Position numbers and translations under genes: made by a program. The notes beneath the pieces are model-generated. The model was not told where the DNA came from, made no database searches, and saw only the letters and a program-made list of their open reading frames with translations. Positions 119 through 64,000 of a stretch of DNA of 64,000 nucleotides are shown in pieces. The stretch lies in NCBI GenBank assembly GCA_938045545.1, contig CALIBN010000017.1, forward strand, positions 64,519 to 128,518, given 5' to 3'. Every line of letters starts with the position of its first letter. Position 1 is the first letter of the stretch. Source of the DNA: an uncultured archaeon. Lineage in GTDB: Archaea > Thermoproteota > EX4484-205 > JAAOZP01.

Positions 119-607
119 CTACTTGACGGCGAGCTCCTGCATAAGGGTCTGAACAGCCTTCTTGCTTAGCTCCCTAGCAGCCTGGTCGAGAGTAACGTAT
201 TTCAAAGCCTCCTTCGGACAGTATTCGACGCACCTCGGGTAGCCGTGTTTCTCACAGTAATCGCATACAATGATCTTCCTCTTGTCGAGATGGAGCCTTA
301 TGACTCCGAAGGGGCATGTTTCAACACACCAGCCGCACCCGTTACACTTATTCTCTTCTACAACTATGATTCCACTGGGCTTCTGCGTTAAAGCGTCCCT
401 CGGACATGCTTTGACGCAGGGAGGGTCCTCACACTTCCTGCAAGCTACAGCCAGGTTTAGGAAGGGCTCTATCCTTACAACCCTTATCCTGGACTTCTTA
501 ATGTTTAGAACGCCCTCGCTTACGAAAGAGCATATGTATTCGCATATCCTGCACCCGTTGCACTTGTCAGGGTCGCAGACAATTATCTTCCTAAGCCTCG
601 ACTCCAA
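119..607 (-). CDS. 4Fe-4S dicluster ferredoxin-like subunit (AOR-associated)
   Basis: Four Cys clusters (CNGCRICEYIC, CRKCEDPPCVKACP, CNGCGWCVETCP, CDYC...CVEYCP); overlaps the 3' end of the AOR gene. Confidence 0.9.
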   Translation of the reverse strand: MESRLRKIIVCDPDKCNGCRICEYICSFVSEGVLNIKKSRIRVVRIEPFLNLAVACRKCEDPPCVKACPRDALTQKPSGIIVVEENKCNGCGWCVETCPFGVIRLHLDKRKIIVCDYCEKHGYPRCVEYCPKEALKYVTLDQAARELSKKAVQTLMQELAVK

Positions 608-6246: not shown

Positions 6247-6939
6247 TCATTTTTTAACTTCCCTGTTTCTTCTTACCTTAGCTAAGAACTCTCTTTTGAA
6301 CTCTTTGTATTCTTCATTTTCATGCGACCTCTTATGCTCATCATATAATTTAAAGGCCGTGTAAACCGCTTCAACTCTTTTCAATACCTCATTAATCATC
6401 TGTTCTTCTGTCATACCCTTTGAGTCAAAGGACGACATGAAAAAGGAATCGTATCCAGGGTTTATATGGTATATCACTTCCACGGAAAACTTCTTGCCGA
6501 TTTCTTAGCTATTTTGTCAGCCCATAATAGTCTTGTGAAAACACGTCCGTGGGGCTTCCTAATGTGCTTCTCGATATTCCTCCTATTTATAAAATCGTCC
6601 AGTATCTCTTTCTCTTTTCTATCTATCTTAGCGAAGACCTCCTCTTTCTTCGTCTTGAACTCGCGTTGATGAAGCCTAACCAAAACCTCGCCGACTTCAT
6701 CCCCAGGAGCATCAAAGCATAGAGATTCTACTTGCACTCTTCCATCCTCATATTCATAGATGTATCTGCAACTAATGAATGCTCCAGTCCCTATTTCCCA
6801 CCTTCCCCGCGCCATTTTTTTTATTTTCGTCATAACACATTACATCTCTTGTTTCTATTTTAAATTGCTCAGTGTTTAGTTCATTCCTGAACCGCTCATT
6901 AAGATAGTTTTTCAACTTTTCTAGTAAGGCTTGACTCAC
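6247..6939 (-). pseudogene. Putative immunity gene of toxin locus A (two compensating frameshifts, about 230 aa)
   Basis: GTG at 6939 lies 3 nt after the reconstructed toxin stop, with GGAGGAG upstream. It reads MSQALLEKLKNYLNERF...DENKK, shifts in the A8 run (6815-6822) into ORF 6474-6833, then shifts near 6502 into ORF 6247-6483. The total span is a multiple of 3. Confidence 0.6.
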
Positions 6940-6942
6940 TTC

Positions 6943-8460
6943 TTAATCTCCTCCTATAATCATAGCAACCAACTCGTCTACACTCTTTTCCATTATGTCA
7001 GACCTCTTAAATATTACTATGAATGGATTCTTGTAATTACCACGAACTCTGGGTAAACATCATCTAAGAGTAAGTGCACAGGGTCATAGGCAAGTGAAGC
7101 TGCAATTCCGGCGTAAGCATTCAGGTTTTCTCCAATATGATTCTTAAGATCAGCTATTGCCCTTTCCATTTGTTCCCTAAACTGGCCCACATTATCTGCT
7201 AGCGTTGTACTCCCAACCTCCACAATTACGATTTTAGTTTCTTTAGGAATAGTTTTCCCTTCTATAACTATCTCCTTATTTGTAATCACATAGATATCAG
7301 GAAATCCAGGTCTTCCATATCCTTCTCCGCTAGGCTCCAATCTCAAACTATCTGGGGAGATTTTATATGCTTCAGCAAACTTAGCAAGAATACTGTCCTT
7401 ATACTTCTCTCTAAGCGTAATTTCGCCAACCACCCCTATTTGCCATTTATGTGCTTCTGGGTCCTCTATTATGTTGCAGAGCATCATCTTTACCTTTATC
7501 TTCGAAGACTCTTCTAAAGAAACTATGTGTACTGTTTTTAATGTTTTGGCTTCCTGGGATACATGGACTGCTAGCCTTTTGTTTCCGCAATACTTAACGC
7601 CGTTGTCGTAATCAGCGATTATTACAAGCCTGTCTTCAGCGTCTACGCCCTCCCTCATTCTGCTTACCAATTCTTGGTAGGCATCATACCCGAGTTTTCT
7701 GAATAGCTTCTCCTTTAAATTAAGTTGCGTCTGATCTTTAATCTCCTCGTTAAGCTCTACTACCAGCTTGCCGCCATACAGTTGAAGAGGTTCCAGCTTA
7801 ATGCTGTATTCTCCTACACTTGGTTTTGCTTCTCGAACGTATATGAACCTTATTACTCCGTCTTTATCAAGCTCGATGTCAGTTACAGGATAACCTGTTT
7901 CTGAACTAGAGCTCCAGACTTTTATGACTTTATTCTCGTAGAGTACTAGTTTAAGTGTTTCGCCATCGATGTTCTTAGCCCTTATCTCCACCCTAGCACA
8001 AACTTTTCCATCCGCGCACCATTTCTTCTCAACTTTGGATTCAATTTCTTTCCCATCTATGCTTATTTTCATGTTTGCATAGTCAAAAATCATCCTCTTA
8101 CCTGCGACTGAGAATTCGTTTGGAAAAAGGTTTCAAAATCATACTCGTAAATCTCTAGACTGGCTATCTCTTTTTCAGCTACGCTGTCTACGCCTTCCAA
8201 GTATTTATGGGGTACATTGAGCCACAAAGATTCTTCCTCTACGCTGAATGCAAATTCTACTTCCTTTCCTCCCTCCAGCCTGAGCCTTGCTATATAGATT
8301 CCCTTACTTATCCTATCCTTAAGATTATTACACCGTTTTTAGTTACGCTCCTTGAAATCAGTTCAGGTCTGAGATGCTTAAGACTATTTATCGCATTAAA
8401 GATTCCTTCCAATTCTTCGGGATTCCTTAGGACCTTATCGAGAAGAGGGCCGTCTAACTG
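6943..8460 (-). pseudogene. 5'-truncated, frameshifted large protein with a C-terminal PD-(D/E)xK-like nuclease domain (toxin locus A)
   Basis: ORF 7017-8093 extends upstream (LLDKVLRNPEELEGIF..., RISKGIYIARL...) and downstream (GNYKNPFIVIF...GGD*) through frameshifts near 8310, 8126 and 7041. Motifs GVVGE...PDIYV...IVEVGST; colinear similarity to 60600-62433. Confidence 0.65.
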
Positions 8461-27200: not shown

Positions 27201-27294
27201 CGGGCCCGCTGGGATTTGAACCCAGGTTCTCCGGCTCCGAAGGCCTACGCGAGCAATCCTCTCGACGCCTTTATCCTGGCTTGGCCACGGGCCC
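27201..27294 (-). tRNA. tRNA-Arg(UCG) with an 18-nt intron at non-canonical position 29/30 (intron 27245-27262)
   Basis: Minus strand folds as GGGCCCG acceptor stem, D arm, TCG[intron]GC-CT-TCG-GA-GCCGG anticodon arm and CTGGG-TTCAAAT-CCCAG T arm. Intron junctions form a bulge-helix-bulge. Confidence 0.92.
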
Positions 27295-57831: not shown

Positions 57832-59028
57832 ATGGTTGCAATCCTTAAATCTGGCGGATCGTTTCAAAACGCGATGAAAAGGATCTGCGTAATACATTAT
57901 TCTGAAATAGGTTTGAAAGGCCTTAACCGACCTTTCTTCGAAAAGATGCTCGTTAAAAATGTTAGACGTCTGTTGAGCGGCATAGCTGACTCCAGGGTTA
58001 AGAGGCTTCAGGGAAGGCTGGTTTTCCCGTTAAACGGGGCGGATCCTCAGAGGGTTGAGGAAAGCCTCATGAAGGTTTTCGGAATATCCTGGTTTGCGTT
58101 CGCAACAGTGGCTGAGCCAAACGTTGATTCAATAGGGAGAACAGTTGTGGAGGAGGCCTCACGGGTTGTTAAGCCGGGTGAGCCCGTTAAGGTTGAGGTT
58201 AAGAGGGCTGACAAGAGGTTTCCCGTAACCTCGCTTGAACTAAGCAAGACCCTTGGGAGAATGCTCGTTGAAAAACTTGGGGCAAAGGTTTCCCTTGAAA
58301 ACCCCTCTAAGAAAATATACGTTGAAGTCTTAAGCAGGGAGGCTTACATATTTACTGAAAAGAAAAAGGGCTTGGGAGGGCTACCCGTGGGGTCTTCAGG
58401 CAGGGTTCTCTCGCTCCTTTCAGGAGGAATAGATTCTCCAATCGCCTCCTACCTGATGATGAAAAGGGGCTGTGAAGTCAGCTACCTGCATTTCCATCCT
58501 TTCCACGATAATGCTGAGGCGGAGAACTCTAAGGTAATGGAGATAGTTAGGAGACTGCTGCCCTACTCCGGCGAAACCGCTGTGATCTTCGTACCCTCAT
58601 ATGAGTTTCAAATAGCGGCGGTCAACATCCCGGCCAAGTATGACCTCGTCCTCTTCAGAAGGTTCATGTTCAGGGTTGCGGAGAGGATTGCTGAGGCTGA
58701 GGGCGCTAGGGCCATCGTGACCGGTGAAAGCCTTGCCCAAGTAGCGTCTCAAACGCTTGAAAACATGGTTGCGATAAGCAGTGGCCTCAGAATACCTGTT
58801 TTCAGGCCTCTGATAGCGTTCGACAAGGAGGAGATTGTAAACATGGCTAAGAAGATAGGCACATACGAGCTTTCAATAAAGCCGTACAGAGATTGCTGTA
58901 GCATCCTTGCACGTCATCCCGAGACGAGGGCCAAGCCCGAGGTCGTCGAAGAGCTCGAGAAACAGATCGACATGGAATCCGTAGTAGACAGGAGCCTCAA
59001 ACTGGCTTCAAAAGTAATCGTAAAGTAA
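57832..59028 (+). CDS. thiI: tRNA 4-thiouridine synthase ThiI
   Basis: YSEIGLKG.NR, THUMP domain, GLPVGSSG, LLSGGIDS, GESLAQVASQT and DCC motifs. Confidence 0.94.
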   Translation: MVAILKSGGSFQNAMKRICVIHYSEIGLKGLNRPFFEKMLVKNVRRLLSGIADSRVKRLQGRLVFPLNGADPQRVEESLMKVFGISWFAFATVAEPNVDSIGRTVVEEASRVVKPGEPVKVEVKRADKRFPVTSLELSKTLGRMLVEKLGAKVSLENPSKKIYVEVLSREAYIFTEKKKGLGGLPVGSSGRVLSLLSGGIDSPIASYLMMKRGCEVSYLHFHPFHDNAEAENSKVMEIVRRLLPYSGETAVIFVPSYEFQIAAVNIPAKYDLVLFRRFMFRVAERIAEAEGARAIVTGESLAQVASQTLENMVAISSGLRIPVFRPLIAFDKEEIVNMAKKIGTYELSIKPYRDCCSILARHPETRAKPEVVEELEKQIDMESVVDRSLKLASKVIVK

Positions 59029-59589
59029 ATCCATCTTCACTACTCCGGAATATGTTGGATATAAGAGACGATAGTGATGTGCTAATCTTTTTCCCTCATT
59101 ATCTATAGCTATGAGGTTGATGCATATCGAATTAGCTTGAAAGGATTACGTAGAGACAAATGCCGACTAAGGTCTCACCGAGGATTCATAGAGATTATCT
59201 TTCTAGGTTCTCTTCAACCAATGTGAAGAGTGTTATGAATGTTCTAATAGCGTATTGGTTTCGCTACCCCAGTTCTAGTTTCTTACCTTCATTTGGCAAT
59301 GTCTTCTAAAAAAAGGCGTCAAGCGTCTTGATTTGGGAGAAAGGCGTCAAAGGTTTGAAGCCCCGGGCAGTGTGAGCTACTGAATATGGTAAGCAAAAAT
59401 TTACCTGAGGCAAAAGGGCGTTTACCTGCTGATGAGCAAAGAATTCCGATGAGCAATCATCACTTCCTCGGACACTTTTAATGGCATTTATCCGCCTAAT
59501 TTGCCCAAGAATTCGTCCTCGAATGCCGCTTCCCGGAGCTGGCTAAGAACGGTGTATATAAATCTTCCGTTGGTAAATTGCGCGCGCGC

Positions 59590-62433
59590 AGGAGCCCGCA
59601 GTTGGAGACGTTGTCCTCGAGCTCGTTAAAGATGGCAGGGTCGTCGCAGGGGTGAGGGTTTCACTCGTGCTTAAGGCGACGATGTTCTGGAAGGGCTTCT
59701 GGGATGGTCTGGCAACGAAGCTCCCCGGAATATAGATCACCGCTGGCGTAATGATCGCCATGGGCTTCTTGATTCCCCACGCCTACATTAGACCAGCGTA
59801 CTATCTCCTTTTGGGCCTAGGAGTGCTATCGAACATACTTGAAGTAACTTCGGACATCGCAGAAGCCAATAGGGCCAAGCCGAGATGCTTGCCTTAGCTG
59901 AGGCCTTCGAGAACCGTTCGAAGGAATTTACAGCTAGAGGCGAGGCTGAACATGCTGCCGAAAGCGTGGGCTTTGCGCTCACGTTAAGGAGAGAGGTTAA
60001 CGAGACGATGAACAATCTATTGCTGAACGTTATCTCAGACCTCACCATAGCGATAAGCTTTGATGAGATAAGGATAGCCCTTGGATTGAAGGAGCCCCTA
60101 GCCAGAGACGAGTTTGAGAGACAATATAAGATAGGTTATGCTAGGGGGAGGGTTACTGGCACAGTCATTTCGTGCATGCTTTACGTAACCCTGCTGGTAA
60201 TGGTTAATAGGATAAAGGTTGAGAGGATTGGTCAACGCTTAACAGCTGGCCAAGTCCTCAAGCTGATGGCGAGGGGATTTACAATTGGATAACTCCAGCG
60301 GTATGGGACGCCGCCGTCCTGATGTGGGGAAAGATAAAGGGCTTCACTAGCAACGTCATTGACCTGCTCTTAGGGAATAAGTATAGCAGGAGGTTTGGGG
60401 AAGCGGTTGGAAGCCTGCTCCAGAACGCGAGGGGAGAGCTGCCTAAGATTAAGGATACGCTGGACATTTCCTCAGGAATCTCGAAAAATGTCTTAGAGAA
60501 CGTTCCGAGCAGGGAGAGCTCAAAGAAGATACTCGACGCCATAGGGGGGCATTGTTGAACGGTATTCCCTGGAGGAGCTGAAGGAGAAAGGTGGAACGAT
60601 GGCGAGAAGCATAGTATCGATGTGGATCAAAGATGGTGACGAGACGATAGACAATCTGAACGATTGGTTAAACGGAAATCCCGATAAGATAAGGGCATTT
60701 ATAGACGAGATACTGTTAGCAATAAAGGGGGATGCCACAAAAGATGTCGGATTAAAGATAGGGGACATCGCCGCCAATTACTTCGATATTAAGAGCAAAT
60801 ATAGCGAAGAGGCTGCAAAAGCTTTCCTCAATCTCATCTTGAAAAGTCCTGAAGAGCTGGAGAGCATATTGAAATCTCTTAAATGCAAAATCTTCACGAA
60901 GACACATGTGTCACATTAAAGAGGGAGGAAGCATATATGATAGTATTAGGCGAAAGATTCGAGAAAAGAGTCTACATCGCAAGAGTTTACTGGCAGCACG
61001 GAGATAAGAGCAGCATCATAGAGTTTCCAATTTCGACTAGGGGCTCAAACGTGATTGCCATACCGGCAGATAAGGCCGATGAGATCCTAGACGCGATAGG
61101 CAGCAATGAGGCAAGGGTGGAGATGACCAAGATCGTCATGATGGATTATAGGCTCTCCTTCGTATCAAGCTTTTGGAACGGCCAGATAGAGCTAGACCTC
61201 TTCAATAACGAGATAATGCTGGGCAGAGAGCGATACAAGTGCTCAGTAGAAGCTGGTCACGGCAAAGAAGGGATCTTTGTCGAAGTAACCGTGGGGTCTA
61301 GAAATACGCAAGGGAAATCCCTTGTCCTGGTCTTCCACAGTAATGGCAAAGTAGCTGTGTTACACGCCGGGCATAAGTTTCCTCTTGAAAGCATTGAGAT
61401 AGATGCTGAGCACAACGCGGTGAAGGTGACTTATGAAATGGAGGGACAGAAACAGGAGTGCGTATACAGCCTTTGGTCTGGAATTGAGGAGGTAGTAGTA
61501 GACGGAAAGAAGATCAGAAAGCTGGTTAACATAGATAAACGGCTCCAGTGGGAGGAGAAGGTAGGGGAGAGGACAGCTATTGGCCTGAAACAGAACCTCC
61601 TCATATTATTAGGTTATGAAGCCTATGGGATCGTGAAGGAGGAGATAGGAAAGAATTATTTCATCGTCGTGGAGTATGATAACGGCAAGATAGCGAGTAC
61701 CAAAGATGAAAGCATTGCCATCAAAGTGCCTGAGGGCGCTAAAGAGACGAAAGCGATATACGTATTCTCACTAGAGATATCTCCAGTAGAAGGACATCCA
61801 ACTTTACCAGAGGTAATAAAGAAGAAAGTAATAAATGCTCTCAGGAGGGTGATAAAGCATCTCGCTGAAGGAAGCCTAAGAGCAGCAGCCGTTCCACTAT
61901 GGACCGCCGGAGAGTATGCTGTACATGTGAAGAGTAGTGACAGCATTCTCAATAAGCTCGGGAAAGCGCTGAATATCCCGGAGAATGAGCTCGAGGCATT
62001 CAAGAACGCAGTGAATGTCGAATAGCATGGAGAGCTTAATCCAGATAAGGGAAGCGCCGATATAATAATTAAGGCTAAGAGGGATATAACTATAAAGGGA
62101 AGGATATTCAAATCCAATGATGTTATCGCGATAGTTGGGGTTAAAAGCACTGTTCGAATAGGTGTAGATGCATTTCCAAATGCATTCAAAGAAATGTATG
62201 ATGATGCTGTAAAAGGTCTCAGGGATCACATTAAGAACTATGGAACCGCAACGTATGGTGTTATAGTTATCCTCGGCTACAATCCCGAGATGATGCTTTG
62301 GAGTATGCATATGAAGGATGAGCCGTTCTTCCCCGTCGAGATTCTTACTAAAGAAGGGATCTATGAGAATCCTTACATAGAGGTACTTCCAAGGGAGAAA
62401 ATACTACCTCCTCAAGTAGGTCAAGGAAGCTGA
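59590..62433 (+). pseudogene. 5'-truncated large membrane-associated protein with a C-terminal PD-(D/E)xK-like nuclease domain (toxin locus B)
   Basis: ORFs 59885-60292, 60322-60558, 60599-60919, 60883-62025 and 62194-62433 join into one reading through frameshifts (near 59879, 60273-6, 60544-9, near 60890) and TAG stops (59733, 62023). Motifs AGEY...ADIII...IVGVKST; paralog of 6943-8460. Confidence 0.7.
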
Positions 62434-62474
62434 GGAGACGAGTAGGCTTAAAAGGCTCGAATCCGCAATTGTTA

Positions 62475-63236
62475 ATGGAAATGATAGACCCTGGGCTCGA
62501 GAGGCGCTTCGTGAGCTCGATAGAGTACCTTCGCAGGATGAATTTCTTTAAAGAGTACTTCGACTTGACCTCCGAGGAGATATTCGAAAAGATCTTGAAT
62601 GGTGAAATAGATTATGAGACCAAATGGTTTGCAGAGAAATAGTCTGAGGGGGAACGGAAGTGGGAGAGGGAGTTACTGAAAAAGACGCTGGGAGCAGGAG
62701 CCCACGGACAATTTTTGAAGGAATCGCTTGAGAGTGGCACAGAATATTGGATGAAGGTCAGTGGGTATGAGGTAGACGTTGAAGTGGCGCGCTTTGATAT
62801 CCATAGGGTCTTCCTCGAAGATCCGGAGACCGTCATAAGGGACGGAATATGTGAAGCAATAGTGGAGAAGCTTGCAAGAGTCTCAAGGGGCTTTTTCAGC
62901 CCGACGGATGTTAAGGGAGAAATGCTGGACTGGATGGGTGAGCCGCCGCCGGAGCTAAAGGAGGAGTTAAAGGGATGCATCTCCCCACAGGGGTGTATCT
63001 TCAAGGTGGACTTCAAGTTTAGGGGAAAGGAATATGCAGCGGAGTTTTACAGCAATGCGGATTACCTCCGCATGGACTCATTCGTGAGGAAGATAAACGA
63101 TCTCATAAAGGATACCGGATATCAATACTATTGGCCTCGCTATTTACATATAGAGTACTTAGTCTACATGGTATTTTCGGAGGATGAAGCGAGGAAATTG
63201 GAGAAAGAAAGAGGCTGGAAGCTCTCTTTGCACTAG
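62475..63236 (+). pseudogene. Putative immunity gene of toxin locus B (in-frame TAG at 62640)
   Basis: MEMIDPGLERRFVSSIEYLRRMNFF...WFAEK*SEG... continues in frame into ORF 62715-63236 (LARVSRGFFSP...KINDLIKDTGYQYY...KLEKERGW); starts 42 nt after the toxin stop. Confidence 0.62.
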
Positions 63237-63302
63237 TTAGCACTATCTCAAAATTTTTGTAGAAACTTTCATATAGGATTTCATTCTTGCCTGCATTAAG
63301 AA

Positions 63303-63437
63303 ATGAAAACGGAAGTTAAAGAACTAATAACCTGTCCCAGCTGTCAGAGGCGAATATCAAGCGATTCCAAATTCTGCAATTATTGTGGGACGAGCGTGAC
63401 GAAAGTTGAAATGCCTCCGCCACCTGGGTTGGAGTGA
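63303..63437 (+). CDS. Small zinc-ribbon protein (44 aa)
   Basis: MKTEVKELITCPSCQRRISSDSKFCNYCGTSV...; below the ORF-track length cutoff. Confidence 0.6.
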   Translation: MKTEVKELITCPSCQRRISSDSKFCNYCGTSVTKVEMPPPPGLE

Positions 63438-63625
63438 AAGAAGCCTCAGCACCTCTAACAACTGCTAAAAAACTTTTAATTTTGATATGCATATTTGGAA
63501 GCATCATTAGCACCCTGTCTCGATGCCCGCCCTTAATGATTATTATCAACGGAATTAGTTTTACAATATACAGCTATTAAAAAAGAGAGCCTTAAACTGG
63601 CTTCGAGTCGTTGTAGAATAGGGGC

Positions 63626-64000
63626 TTACCTTACTCCTTTTGTTAAAGCATCTCGAACCCTCTTCCCGGCCTCTTCCAAAGCTTCGCCAATTTTCCCATA
63701 CGGTAATGAGCCTATTGCAATCTTCTGGTCTCCGCCACCCTTAACGCCGAAAACATTACACAGCTCTCTTAGTATTTGCGCCGCGCTAATCCTCTCATCG
63801 CCACTTCCTATTAAGATATTGCATGTTCCAGACCACTCCAAGCCGACGACGTAAATGGAACGATTTTCATCTATGAGTTCTCCAACGATCTTCATAACGG
63901 TCTTGGTGTCGACCCCCTTGAGAAATGCCCTGTAAAGTTTCGCGCCCTGAAGGGATTCTTCCAAGGGGATTTTCTTAACAACGTCTTCCGTAACAGTTGA
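63626..64000 (-). CDS. C-terminal DHHA1 domain (AlaRS / alanyl-tRNA editing protein-like), 5' part outside the window
   Basis: SAAQILRELCNVFGVKGGGDQKIAIG matches the DHHA1 GxGGG motif. Confidence 0.7.
   Translation of the reverse strand, partial: STVTEDVVKKIPLEESLQGAKLYRAFLKGVDTKTVMKIVGELIDENRSIYVVGLEWSGTCNILIGSGDERISAAQILRELCNVFGVKGGGDQKIAIGSLPYGKIGEALEEAGKRVRDALTKGVR

Follow-up and report, generated by a model that had tools for sequence, protein, structure and literature searches.

The window, by which we mean the whole 64,000-nucleotide stretch of archaeal DNA analysed, carries the remains of a former single gene on the plus strand at 59589–62433, delimited from a three-frame translation and the sequences at its junctions. 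Approximately 945 codons are left. The 5′ end is missing and the frame is interrupted six times, by four frameshifts and two in-frame TAG codons, leaving seven reading pieces (f1 to f7), all on the plus strand. The original prediction had rejoined fragments of this region into more than 900 amino acids, in agreement with this count, and had proposed a search for intact full-length members. These were found in related genomes as proteins of 1600–1720 amino acids, and the window pieces are colinear with residues ~730–1607 of those that are 1610–1627 amino acids long, which is more than chance would give. From the window copy some 730 N-terminal codons are gone, signal peptide included; the 5′ end that had been noted as missing is predicted to encode a Sec-type signal peptide in the relatives.

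The first piece, f1, is an open frame at 59577–59732, of which 59589–59732 is homologous to the intact proteins and aligns with residues 740–781 of one of them, L049. It encodes the final beta strands of the outer part at the N-terminus and the motif FWKGFWDG(L), a version of which (FWxGFWDG-like) occurs in five of five proteins of the type I architecture described below. The 5′ truncation breakpoint is placed at 59589 on the plus strand, the position at which homology to the relatives' contigs and to L062 begins. An in-frame TAG at 59733–59735 separates f1 from f2 (59736–59894; L049 783–823), a hydrophobic helical hairpin of two helices, and near 59876 the frame shifts to f3 (59873–60289), which contains amphipathic helices followed by a third hydrophobic, glycine-rich helix, YKIGYARGRVTGTVISCMLYVTLLVMV, and is 43% identical to L049 residues 833–963. 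The helical trunk continues through f4 (60223–60555; 58% identity to L049 961–1048), entered by a shift near 60276, and this conserved trunk ends in f5 (60545–60916; 50% identity to L049 1048–1166), which is reached by a shift in a run of G near 60548. After a further shift near 60907, f6 (60883–62022) encodes a variable cassette of beta domains and the first helices of a nuclease domain; it corresponds to L049 residues 1174–1516 and is 27–32% identical to L048, L049 and L050. In structure models of relatives, as distinct from the window copy, the part of the cassette equivalent to f6 is confidently predicted. The junction sequence then gives a second in-frame TAG at 62023–62025, and f7 (62026–62433, ending in TGA; L049 1528–1607) encodes the PD-(D/E)xK nuclease tip, in which ExK has become GxK (IVGVKST). 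That f7 would have the nuclease fold is deduced from the model of a paralog. The AGE, ADIII and IVGVKST motifs lie at the f6/f7 end of the gene, and every motif quoted beforehand, including FWKGFWDGL in f1, the two hydrophobic helices in f2 and the glycine-rich segment in f3, has a place in the rejoined protein.

The break sites can be compared with those of relatives, the contigs of runs X3 and X7, which are ~92% identical to the window (311–321 differing letters and 9 gaps per ~3690 bases). Both carry one-base indels in all four zones where frames overlap, namely an added A after 59876, after 60276 and after 60907 and one base fewer at 60548, and the direction of every indel is the one required to restore a single frame. 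They also have T at 59734, which turns the first TAG into TTG. Contigs from X1 and X2, among which the sample of origin is probably included, are the same as the window at the frameshift sites and at 59734, and in a second genome this locus has lost 3.1 kb internally. The copy in the window is a dead pseudogene: it is truncated at the front, frameshifted, interrupted by TAG codons and has G in place of the catalytic E. It is a relic without a function of its own, and the idea that this copy is a working toxin has to be given up.

All three in-frame stops at the locus, two in this gene and one in the partner gene that follows it, are TAG, as might be seen if the gene still worked through recoding, with TAG read as a sense codon and programmed frameshifts. 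We consider this extremely improbable. The four frameshifts differ in sign, the 5′ end with its signal peptide is absent, the catalytic E is G, and the copy of the locus in the other genome has its 3.1-kb deletion. Pyrrolysine or stop read-through at the three TAG codons is rejected: the best PylS match, at 28.6 bits, falls below the cut-off of 178, no suppressor tRNA was found, 367 of 1057 long ORFs end in TAG, and X3 and X7 read TTG at the first of the three.

Immediately downstream, at 62469–63236 on the plus strand and co-directional with the relic, lies a gene of ~250 amino acids that belongs to a family of partner genes we call d. Its presence had been predicted and the gene is real, but it too is broken, by an in-frame TAG at 62640–62642. 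The pairing is unusual, since in 11 of 11 foreign d loci the d gene is convergent to a tip of a different clade, and the 12 other members of the clade of the window tip all have a partner from a second family, e. No convergent nuclease-tip remnant was detected below an E value of 0.1 downstream of the window d gene (63150–63700). At the other end of the window, locus A (7020–8132, minus strand) is a 5′-truncated paralog cassette within a low-GC island, in which ExK has become ExG (IVEVGST). It is 24% identical to f6 (E 1e-11), which bears out the claim that locus A is a diverged paralog of the C-terminal half. Its partner belongs to the e family, is split over three frames at 6250–6936 on the minus strand and is unrelated to the 250-residue gene at the window relic, as had also been suggested (hhalign probability 0.4%).

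In the intact relatives a signal peptide is followed by an N-terminal part rich in sequons, by hydrophobic helices and a helical trunk, and by a C-terminal cassette of ~440 amino acids. Three types of trunk can be distinguished. Type I has the signal peptide, an outer part of ~730 amino acids, the hydrophobic helices and the helical trunk; in type II the N-terminus is polytopic, the middle part is long and there is a hydrophobic hairpin; and type III, an acidic coiled coil, lacks hydrophobic segments. The cassette is of one kind in all of them, made of beta domains and a PD-(D/E)xK nuclease. When full-length proteins were compared with P0013, 9 of 12 were 56–93% identical over the first 960 residues and 13–66% identical in the last 180. 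P0025 gave the opposite pattern, with 21–38% in the trunk and 50–60% at the end. At the DNA level the trunk part of the window gene matches many genomes at 69–80%, these matches stop at the border of trunk and cassette, near 60796, and the cassette part is unmatched as DNA in the genus's 16 other genomes. On these comparisons the cassette is mosaic between otherwise similar trunks: recombination varies it and the remainder of the protein is kept. A common trunk with a diverging tip had been proposed; the conserved trunk and mosaic C-terminal part stand, but the unit that varies is the whole ~440-residue cassette of beta domains and nuclease.

Cassettes also occur as tip-only genes and in tandem arrays. 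The genome of the window has a tip–e–chimeric tip–e array on contig C9 and tip-only ORFs on C29 and C11 in addition to locus A, and intact cassettes on C10, where d is convergent, and on C1 and C22, where the partner is e; elsewhere, L026 has a tip ORF of 143 amino acids accompanied by d, and L039 has three e genes. Of 201 genomes sampled from the phylum, 16 had members; 15 of them belong to one genus and the remaining one to the same order. Judged from this sample, the family is multi-copy and almost confined to a single genus of hot-spring archaea, labelled Brockarchaeota or Thermoproteota depending on the source, so that the expectation of a multi-copy, lineage-specific family holds.

The window pieces, full-length relatives, upstream gene, d and e gave no match over cut-off to any Pfam, NCBIfam, PADLOC or PHROGs model, and 15 further homologs gave none to Pfam or NCBIfam families. 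Neither the window pieces nor the full-length relatives belong by sequence to the Pfam Tox-REase models, and nine proteins searched against PADLOC-DB 2.0 at E values up to 0.01 matched no family. PDB sequence profiles returned only chance-level rows for the trunk, d and e; in the ESM Atlas d matched unnamed clusters only, and e gave no usable match. Fold searches for the trunk with a 908-residue model gave only generic helical matches with Z below 8, which have no bearing on the novelty of the fold. Our literature search found no paper on such a family, and, by title and opening of the abstract, nothing related on Brockarchaeota and toxins.

The nature of the tip was judged from a paralog from the same genome, whose model has a pLDDT of 87.6. 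The C-terminal domain of this model (residues ~400–545) superimposes on EndoMS/NucS (5gke_A; Z 8.2, rmsd 3.3, 96 aligned residues), on the Cas4 protein SSO0001 (4ic1_G; Z 7.9) and on 2vld_B (Z 7.8), and matches SfsA with a Foldseek probability of 0.96–0.97. Ahead of it is a beta-barrel-like domain resembling 2glw (Z 7.3 and 6.1 in two fold comparisons). This model assigns the tip to the restriction endonuclease-like core alpha/beta fold of PD-(D/E)xK enzymes, as the original prediction of an REase-fold tip had it. The catalytic D…(D/E)xK motif is kept in the family, with GxK in the window copy and ExG at locus A; the canonical ExK occurs in 24 of 34 tips and is absent from 10, among them intact full-length genes with ExE (L048, L049 and L053). 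The 88 homolog clusters match at the C-terminus. As a correction to the original prediction, the tips do not differ in kind: all 34 examined align to one PD-(D/E)xK motif and share one fold, and this motif alignment revealed no swap of a tip for an unrelated toxin domain.

An e or d gene adjoins the tip in 18 of 19 distinct foreign loci, with e co-directional in 7 of 7 and d convergent in 11 of 11. The two partner families are unrelated to each other (hhalign probability 0.4%). The gene that had been read as a variable immunity gene is tightly adjacent and comes from one of two unrelated families, but the window example is not private or variable; it belongs to the conserved, multi-copy d family of 124 clusters, in which pairwise identity is 47–76%. 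One source attributes an identical d protein to the cultured Infirmifilum uzonense; the locus retrieved for it comes from a MAG. A gene that is both conserved and convergent is unusual for an immunity gene. Partner type follows the clades of the tip, changing 4 times over the tree where shuffled labels give 11.4 (0 of 200 shuffles were as low). Tip and partner identities are correlated for e (r 0.42, a value reached by 3 of 2000 permutations) and for d (r 0.54, reached by 53 of 2000), a correlation for which linkage alone may account. No hydrophobic segment occurs in any of the d and e proteins examined, 13 of each, and we therefore read the partners as soluble. Their position and association with the tip make e and d candidate immunity proteins.

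Type I N-termini are predicted to be signal peptide-like (Sec-type) and that of type II to be polytopic, and type III lacks an export signal. Residues 40–740 of 13 type I proteins contain 135 N-x-S/T sequons against 55 of the reversed motif and 47.5 expected, and the region after the last hydrophobic helix contains 3 against 43 reversed and 36.4 expected, these counts being drawn from related proteins and hence not independent. Across the genome the observed/expected ratio comes to 1.02, and there is an AglB/STT3 gene. The pattern is weak in type II (18 forward, 9 reversed and 12.6 expected before the hairpin; 1, 5 and 10.3 after it), and in type III depletion is not clear (3 forward against 4 reversed and 5.6 expected). 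Should the three hydrophobic segments, at which model confidence is low (pLDDT 30–60), really span the membrane of the producer, the cassette would lie on its cytoplasmic side.

Taken together, the family may be a polymorphic toxin-like system of weapon and antidote directed at neighbouring cells, a reading to which we give a probability of roughly 55%, with toxicity, immunity and export all inferred. The large protein would be exported by Sec and its N-terminal part N-glycosylated at the cell surface. The hydrophobic helices and helical trunk would then insert into a membrane and mediate translocation, by which the unglycosylated nuclease cassette would enter a neighbouring archaeon and cut its DNA, while the cognate e or d protein would bind the nuclease in the cytoplasm of the producer and so protect it. 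Recombination at the border of trunk and cassette, together with truncated modules of cassette plus partner, would diversify the weapon. Several observations speak against this reading: the single fold among tips, the 10 of 34 that lack ExK, the same cassettes and partners in type III proteins with no export signal, the possible cytoplasmic topology of the cassette, the conserved and convergent d genes, and the weak sequon pattern of type II. More speculative, and on balance doubtful, is the fuller proposal of self-contained delivery, in which a Sec-exported glycosylated protein would use its own hairpin and trunk to carry an unglycosylated four-domain nuclease cassette across the membrane of a neighbour with no dedicated secretion machine, countered by two unrelated antidote families of which one is always convergent. 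Because the family fits a polymorphic toxin-like system the original prediction was largely right, with four corrections, and as a whole we regard it as partly supported.

The same features can be arranged in other ways. A signal peptide followed by three hydrophobic segments would leave the C-terminus inside, which together with the lack of an export signal in type III, the soluble partners, the likeness of the nuclease domain to NucS and Cas4, and the many copies, some of them decaying, would suit an intracellular system. Here the cassette, tethered to the membrane in the first two types and unattached in type III, would act in the cytoplasm of the producer as a suicide or defence nuclease or an addiction module, with e or d as antitoxin and the variable N-terminal parts as sensors. 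We think this unlikely: depletion of sequons in the C-terminal half, set against a normal count of the reversed motif and the genome baseline of 1.02, is unexpected for a cytoplasmic domain, 5′-truncated arrays of cassette plus partner and trunk/cassette mosaicism are typical of exported polymorphic toxins, and none of nine proteins has a PADLOC match.

Export could also serve a different purpose. Barnase and barstar, or NucA and NuiA, are pairs of a nuclease and an intracellular inhibitor that guards the producer, and the signal peptide, the outer part rich in sequons, the nuclease tail and the soluble neighbouring partner are what a surface or secreted nuclease would have if it fed on or remodelled extracellular DNA and was held in check by an inhibitor before export. 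For such a housekeeping role, strong divergence of cassettes on conserved trunks, mosaicism, orphan cassettes, several paralogs in a genome and rapid decay are not expected, and the hydrophobic helices would be left without a role, which makes it improbable. Slightly poorer still are the prospects of a surface protein for self/non-self recognition or adhesion, VARTIG-like and without toxicity, whose nuclease-like domain would be a variable binding module. Loss of the canonical ExK from 10 of 34 tips, some in intact genes, would be in keeping with this, as would the resemblance of the outer part and of the upstream anchored glycoprotein-like gene to surface proteins; against it, ExK is retained in 24 of 34 tips, and a soluble cytoplasmic partner tied to the tip clade would have no obvious use.

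If the weapon-and-antidote reading were confirmed, it would show delivery of a nuclease to competitors by an archaeon with no known injection machinery, and would add two new inhibitor folds for PD-(D/E)xK nucleases; self-contained delivery, if true, would be a route not described for archaea. Enrichment of sequons before the hydrophobic helices and their avoidance afterwards make a testable prediction of which half is exposed and which unmodified. The family also offers several architecture types, two candidate antidote families and natural “knock-outs” such as the window copy.

Among known proteins, NucS/EndoMS, SfsA and Cas4 are alike in the fold of the C-terminal domain, before which the family has a beta-barrel-like domain and these proteins have a DNA-binding beta barrel. 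They show no sequence-level match to the family in Pfam, NCBIfam or PDB profiles, and their context differs, since here the domain ends a giant protein that is predicted to be exported and is accompanied by a partner gene. Nuclease colicins and pyocins are secreted proteins with receptor-binding and translocation parts, a C-terminal nuclease and a cognate cytoplasmic immunity protein, and in pore-forming colicins the immunity gene is oppositely oriented, a precedent for a convergent immunity gene. No relation in sequence or fold was found between these proteins and the trunk, and size, domain set and host domain all differ.

Polymorphic toxin systems, including Tox-REase, CDI and Rhs, are defined by Zhang et al. 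2012 (PMC3482391). On that description the present family resembles the bacterial systems in its large protein of several domains, which is predicted to be exported and is conserved in its N-terminal part, in the diverging and recombining C-terminal nuclease with E, D and ExK, and in the adjacent small immunity-like gene, stand-alone truncated cassettes and arrays. An N-terminal determinant for trafficking or secretion is predicted in types I and II, is lacking in type III and has been lost from the window copy, while stand-alone or truncated cassettes with their own immunity-like genes are found at C9, C29, C11, locus A and L026. The exchange of one toxin domain for a different one is not seen among the 34 tips. 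The family differs further in that it lacks membership of Pfam Tox-REase and any known trafficking domain, repeat or processing protease; its variable unit is a four-domain cassette of ~440 amino acids that always has one fold, half of the partners are convergent, there are hydrophobic helices in the middle of the protein, and the host is an archaeon.

Closer in host are the predicted archaeal polymorphic toxins (Makarova et al. 2019, mBio, as cited in PMC8416519), described in the citing paper as loci that begin with a long gene and combine DNase or RNase domains as toxins with immunity genes close by; by the same account none had been experimentally characterised by 2021. The loci described here are similar in being archaeal, with a long gene, a nuclease toxin domain and a nearby immunity-like gene, and are set apart, by comparison with that description only, in that their sampled members lie in one genus and one other genome of the order and belong to no Pfam family. 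The VARTIG module of Thermococcales, which by the statement of that paper has Ig domains and no identifiable toxin (PMC8416519), is likewise an archaeal module specific to its lineage, in which a large surface protein has a hypervariable C-terminus that recombines, and the genes downstream are variable. In contrast to VARTIG, the C-terminus of the present family is a predicted nuclease and its partners are soluble proteins.

Three-frame translation of the window gives seven open pieces on the forward strand between 59577 and 62433, downstream of ThiI (57832–59028), with four changes of frame between them and, in the translation and junction sequences, in-frame TAG codons at 59733 and 62023. 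Counted from the homology breakpoint (59589) to the TGA (62431), the stretch contains ~945 codons, and every motif quoted in the original prediction, which had put the rejoined protein at more than 900 amino acids, is found in the pieces. Intact full-length members sought in related genomes are proteins of 1597–1627 amino acids, and the pieces match residues ~730–1607 of these, colinear and in order. Independent contigs from two other public sequencing runs (X3 and X7) are ~92% identical to the window over 59589/59602–63284. In every one of the four zones where frames overlap they contain a one-base indel whose direction brings the reading back into a single frame, and both read TTG where the window has its first TAG. 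The colinear match and the frame-restoring indels identify the pieces as one former gene, and on the evidence of the indels and the TTG the breaks are genuine in this population and not slips of assembly. Contigs from two further runs, X1 and X2, are the same as the window at the break sites; X1 (96% of sampled words) may be the source sample, so this agreement is not independent support.

The 5′ end had also been thought missing. Upstream of 59589 the X3 contig continues with sequence unlike the window, while the same locus in another genome (L062; G087:C58, 1058–2318) has kept upstream trunk pieces and deleted window 59677–62763, so that 59676 is fused to 62764 and the trunk runs into the mid-part of the following gene. 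The window copy is thus cut off at 59589, and truncation and deletion together mean that the locus decayed independently in two genomes; the window locus itself is a relic. The ~250-residue gene expected directly after it is present (62469–63236, forward strand, 255 codons), but has an in-frame TAG at 62640. TAG is the in-frame stop at all three sites in the broken genes. Recoding was rejected: no PylS scored over the cut-off, no suppressor tRNA was found and TAG ends 367 of 1057 long ORFs. As no pyrrolysine machinery or suppressor tRNA was found and relatives have TTG at the first site, the all-TAG pattern is probably coincidence. ARAGORN also called a tRNA-Asn of 94 nt at 27201–27294 (reverse strand), whose anticodon, ATT, is unusual; it is probably a misread intron-bearing tRNA.

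Hydropathy and ORF maps give three types of trunk, the part ahead of a ~440-residue C-terminal cassette of beta domains and nuclease tip. Type I proteins (1597–1717 amino acids) have a signal-peptide-like N-terminus, ~730 residues, a conserved FWxGFWDG-like motif and a hydrophobic hairpin; amphipathic helices come next, ahead of a third hydrophobic helix, rich in Gly, and a helical trunk. Type II proteins (~2350–2450) have a polytopic N-terminus, ~1000 residues and an analogous hydrophobic hairpin, and type III proteins (825–855) an acidic coiled coil without a hydrophobic segment. The C-terminal cassette is of one kind in all three. AlphaFold models of a 545-residue own-genome paralog (pLDDT 87.6) and of residues 700–1607 from the fetched locus L049 (pLDDT 78.2) both contain confident beta domains and then a C-terminal alpha/beta domain. 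This domain matches EndoMS/NucS (5gke_A; Z 8.2, rmsd 3.3, 96 aligned), Cas4 SSO0001 (Z 7.9), 2vld_B (Z 7.8) and SfsA (Foldseek probability 0.96–0.97), with Exo5 and CidB also among the fold matches; the EndoMS/NucS, Cas4 and SfsA matches of the paralog model bear out the REase-fold tip of the original prediction. The hydrophobic region is modelled with low confidence (pLDDT 30–60), and fold searches of the model gave no meaningful structural match for the trunk. Among 34 non-redundant tips the strand-3 motif is ExK in 24, ExE in five, ExG in two and KxE, SxK and GxK in one each, the sole GxK being the window copy.

In five fetched loci (L049:399–1631, L048:11432–12664, L050:11665–12831, L047:12406–13779 and L051:6177–7496) a conserved upstream gene overlaps the start of the type I gene. 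The encoded protein is rich in sequons and combines a signal peptide and a C-terminal membrane anchor with a YDDGGAExFWSDYYPNG beta domain and a coiled coil; no family model matches it, and it may serve as an accessory partner at the surface. Ahead of type III genes lies a conserved 630–660-residue gene (L053:9183–11132, L054:8425–10407, L055:8284–10176) with a sub-threshold match to calcineurin-like phosphoesterase (25.4 bits, cut-off 27); the own-genome type III copy, on contig C1, is preceded by another gene.

Searching with a profile of the C-terminal half detects the family in 16 of 201 sampled genomes of the phylum: the own genome, 14 of the 16 others of its genus and one in another genus of the order. 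With several own-genome copies and 15 of the 16 positive genomes in one genus, it is multi-copy and lineage-specific, as anticipated. When 1.84 billion representatives were searched exhaustively with a profile, only 88 clusters came up at E ≤0.001 and, among the matches listed, the match is to the C-terminal end of the homologs. Sources name homologs as hypothetical proteins of Candidatus Brockarchaeota or Thermoproteota MAGs, and models of Pfam, NCBIfam, PADLOC and PHROGs match no part of the family. The own genome holds a type II gene, together with the gene upstream of it and a partner gene of the e family described below, split over contig ends (C51:1945–6314, reverse strand, continuing in C22:2–4899, forward strand), and a type I operon split at a contig end (from C39:1986). 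As these members are apparently intact, working copies probably persist there.

P0013 served as the reference for a comparison of twelve full-length type I proteins. Nine are 56–93% identical to it over the first 960 residues and 13–66% in the last 180, and P0025 reverses this (trunk 21–38%, end 50–60%). Likewise, the window trunk DNA (to ~60796) has 69–80% matches in many genomes, and its cassette DNA matches none of the 16 remaining genomes of the genus. The proposed contrast between conserved trunk and diverging C-terminus is thus real, but this mosaicism involves the whole cassette, beyond the nuclease tip, and the fold is always the same.

Iterative profile searches of all ORFs of the own genome and fetched loci defined two partner families, e and d. 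The window's 255-codon gene belongs to d and the gene beside locus A, a second window copy, to e; the families are unrelated (hhalign probability 0.4%), as had been suspected of these two neighbours. A tip was detected in 19 distinct foreign loci, and in 18 of these a partner abuts its 3′ end, e co-directional in 7/7 and d convergent in 11/11; the nineteenth has a convergent 474-residue ORF with a weak e-like stretch. The expected adjacency therefore holds, but with two families in place of a private gene for each tip. Five own-genome d copies are convergent to a tip or tip remnant. Partner type tracks the clades in a tree of the 34 tips, needing 4 changes where shuffled labels need 11.4, and none of 200 shuffles reached so low a value. 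Tip and partner identities correlate, which linkage alone could produce. Both families are free of hydrophobic segments; e is very variable (median pairwise identity 29%) and d more conserved (59%). Own-genome contig C9 (103–3610) carries the array tip–e–chimeric tip–e, the second tip looking chimeric from two ExK strands within a 268-residue ORF. Contigs C29 and C11 have tip-only ORFs with e, and locus L039 three e genes; shared flanking genes mark C11 as a deletion remnant of a locus full-length in L048 and L049. One source attributes the d-family protein P0169 to cultured Infirmifilum uzonense; L065, the locus retrieved for this sequence, lies on a contig from a MAG and has d convergent to the tip in the usual way.

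The 12 other members of the window tip's clade are all paired with e, unlike the window tip, behind which a d gene runs in the same direction. No tip remnant convergent to d was found beyond that gene. The X3 and X7 relatives and G087 have the same order, which makes this an old arrangement rather than an artefact. Locus A (7020–8132, reverse strand) is a truncated cassette with an ExG motif in a 39% GC island, between an HdrA-like and a TldD/PmbA-like gene; its e gene (6250–6936) is frameshifted.

We favour, with a probability of about 0.55, a polymorphic-toxin-like system in which a giant exported protein would carry a toxic nuclease cassette into neighbouring cells, its hydrophobic region would translocate the cassette, and e and d, as cognate inhibitors in the producer's cytoplasm, would confer immunity. 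In the main rival, which we consider unlikely, the nuclease would stay inside the producing cell, in the cytoplasm, and act there in defence or addiction; the three predicted membrane spans and the type III copies speak for this reading. Sequons (N-x-S/T) bear on the site of action. In 13 type I proteins, whose relatedness makes counts non-independent, residues 40–740 contain 135 forward and 55 reversed motifs (47.5 expected), and the part past the last hydrophobic helix 3 forward and 43 reversed (36.4 expected). The genome-wide observed/expected ratio is 1.02, and AglB/STT3 is encoded. The trend is weak in type II, with no clear trend in type III. These counts suggest selection for glycosylation in the type I N-terminal part and against it in the C-terminal half, and such avoidance would be expected only of a half that is likewise exposed to the glycosylation enzyme outside the membrane.

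Swaps between unrelated toxin domains, as described for polymorphic toxin systems in an excerpt of PMC3482391, were not seen in the archaeal family, which otherwise has most of the defining features set out there, with toxicity and immunity as predictions. Archaeal polymorphic toxin systems, with nucleases the commonest toxins, have already been predicted according to a passage of PMC8416519 citing Makarova 2019.
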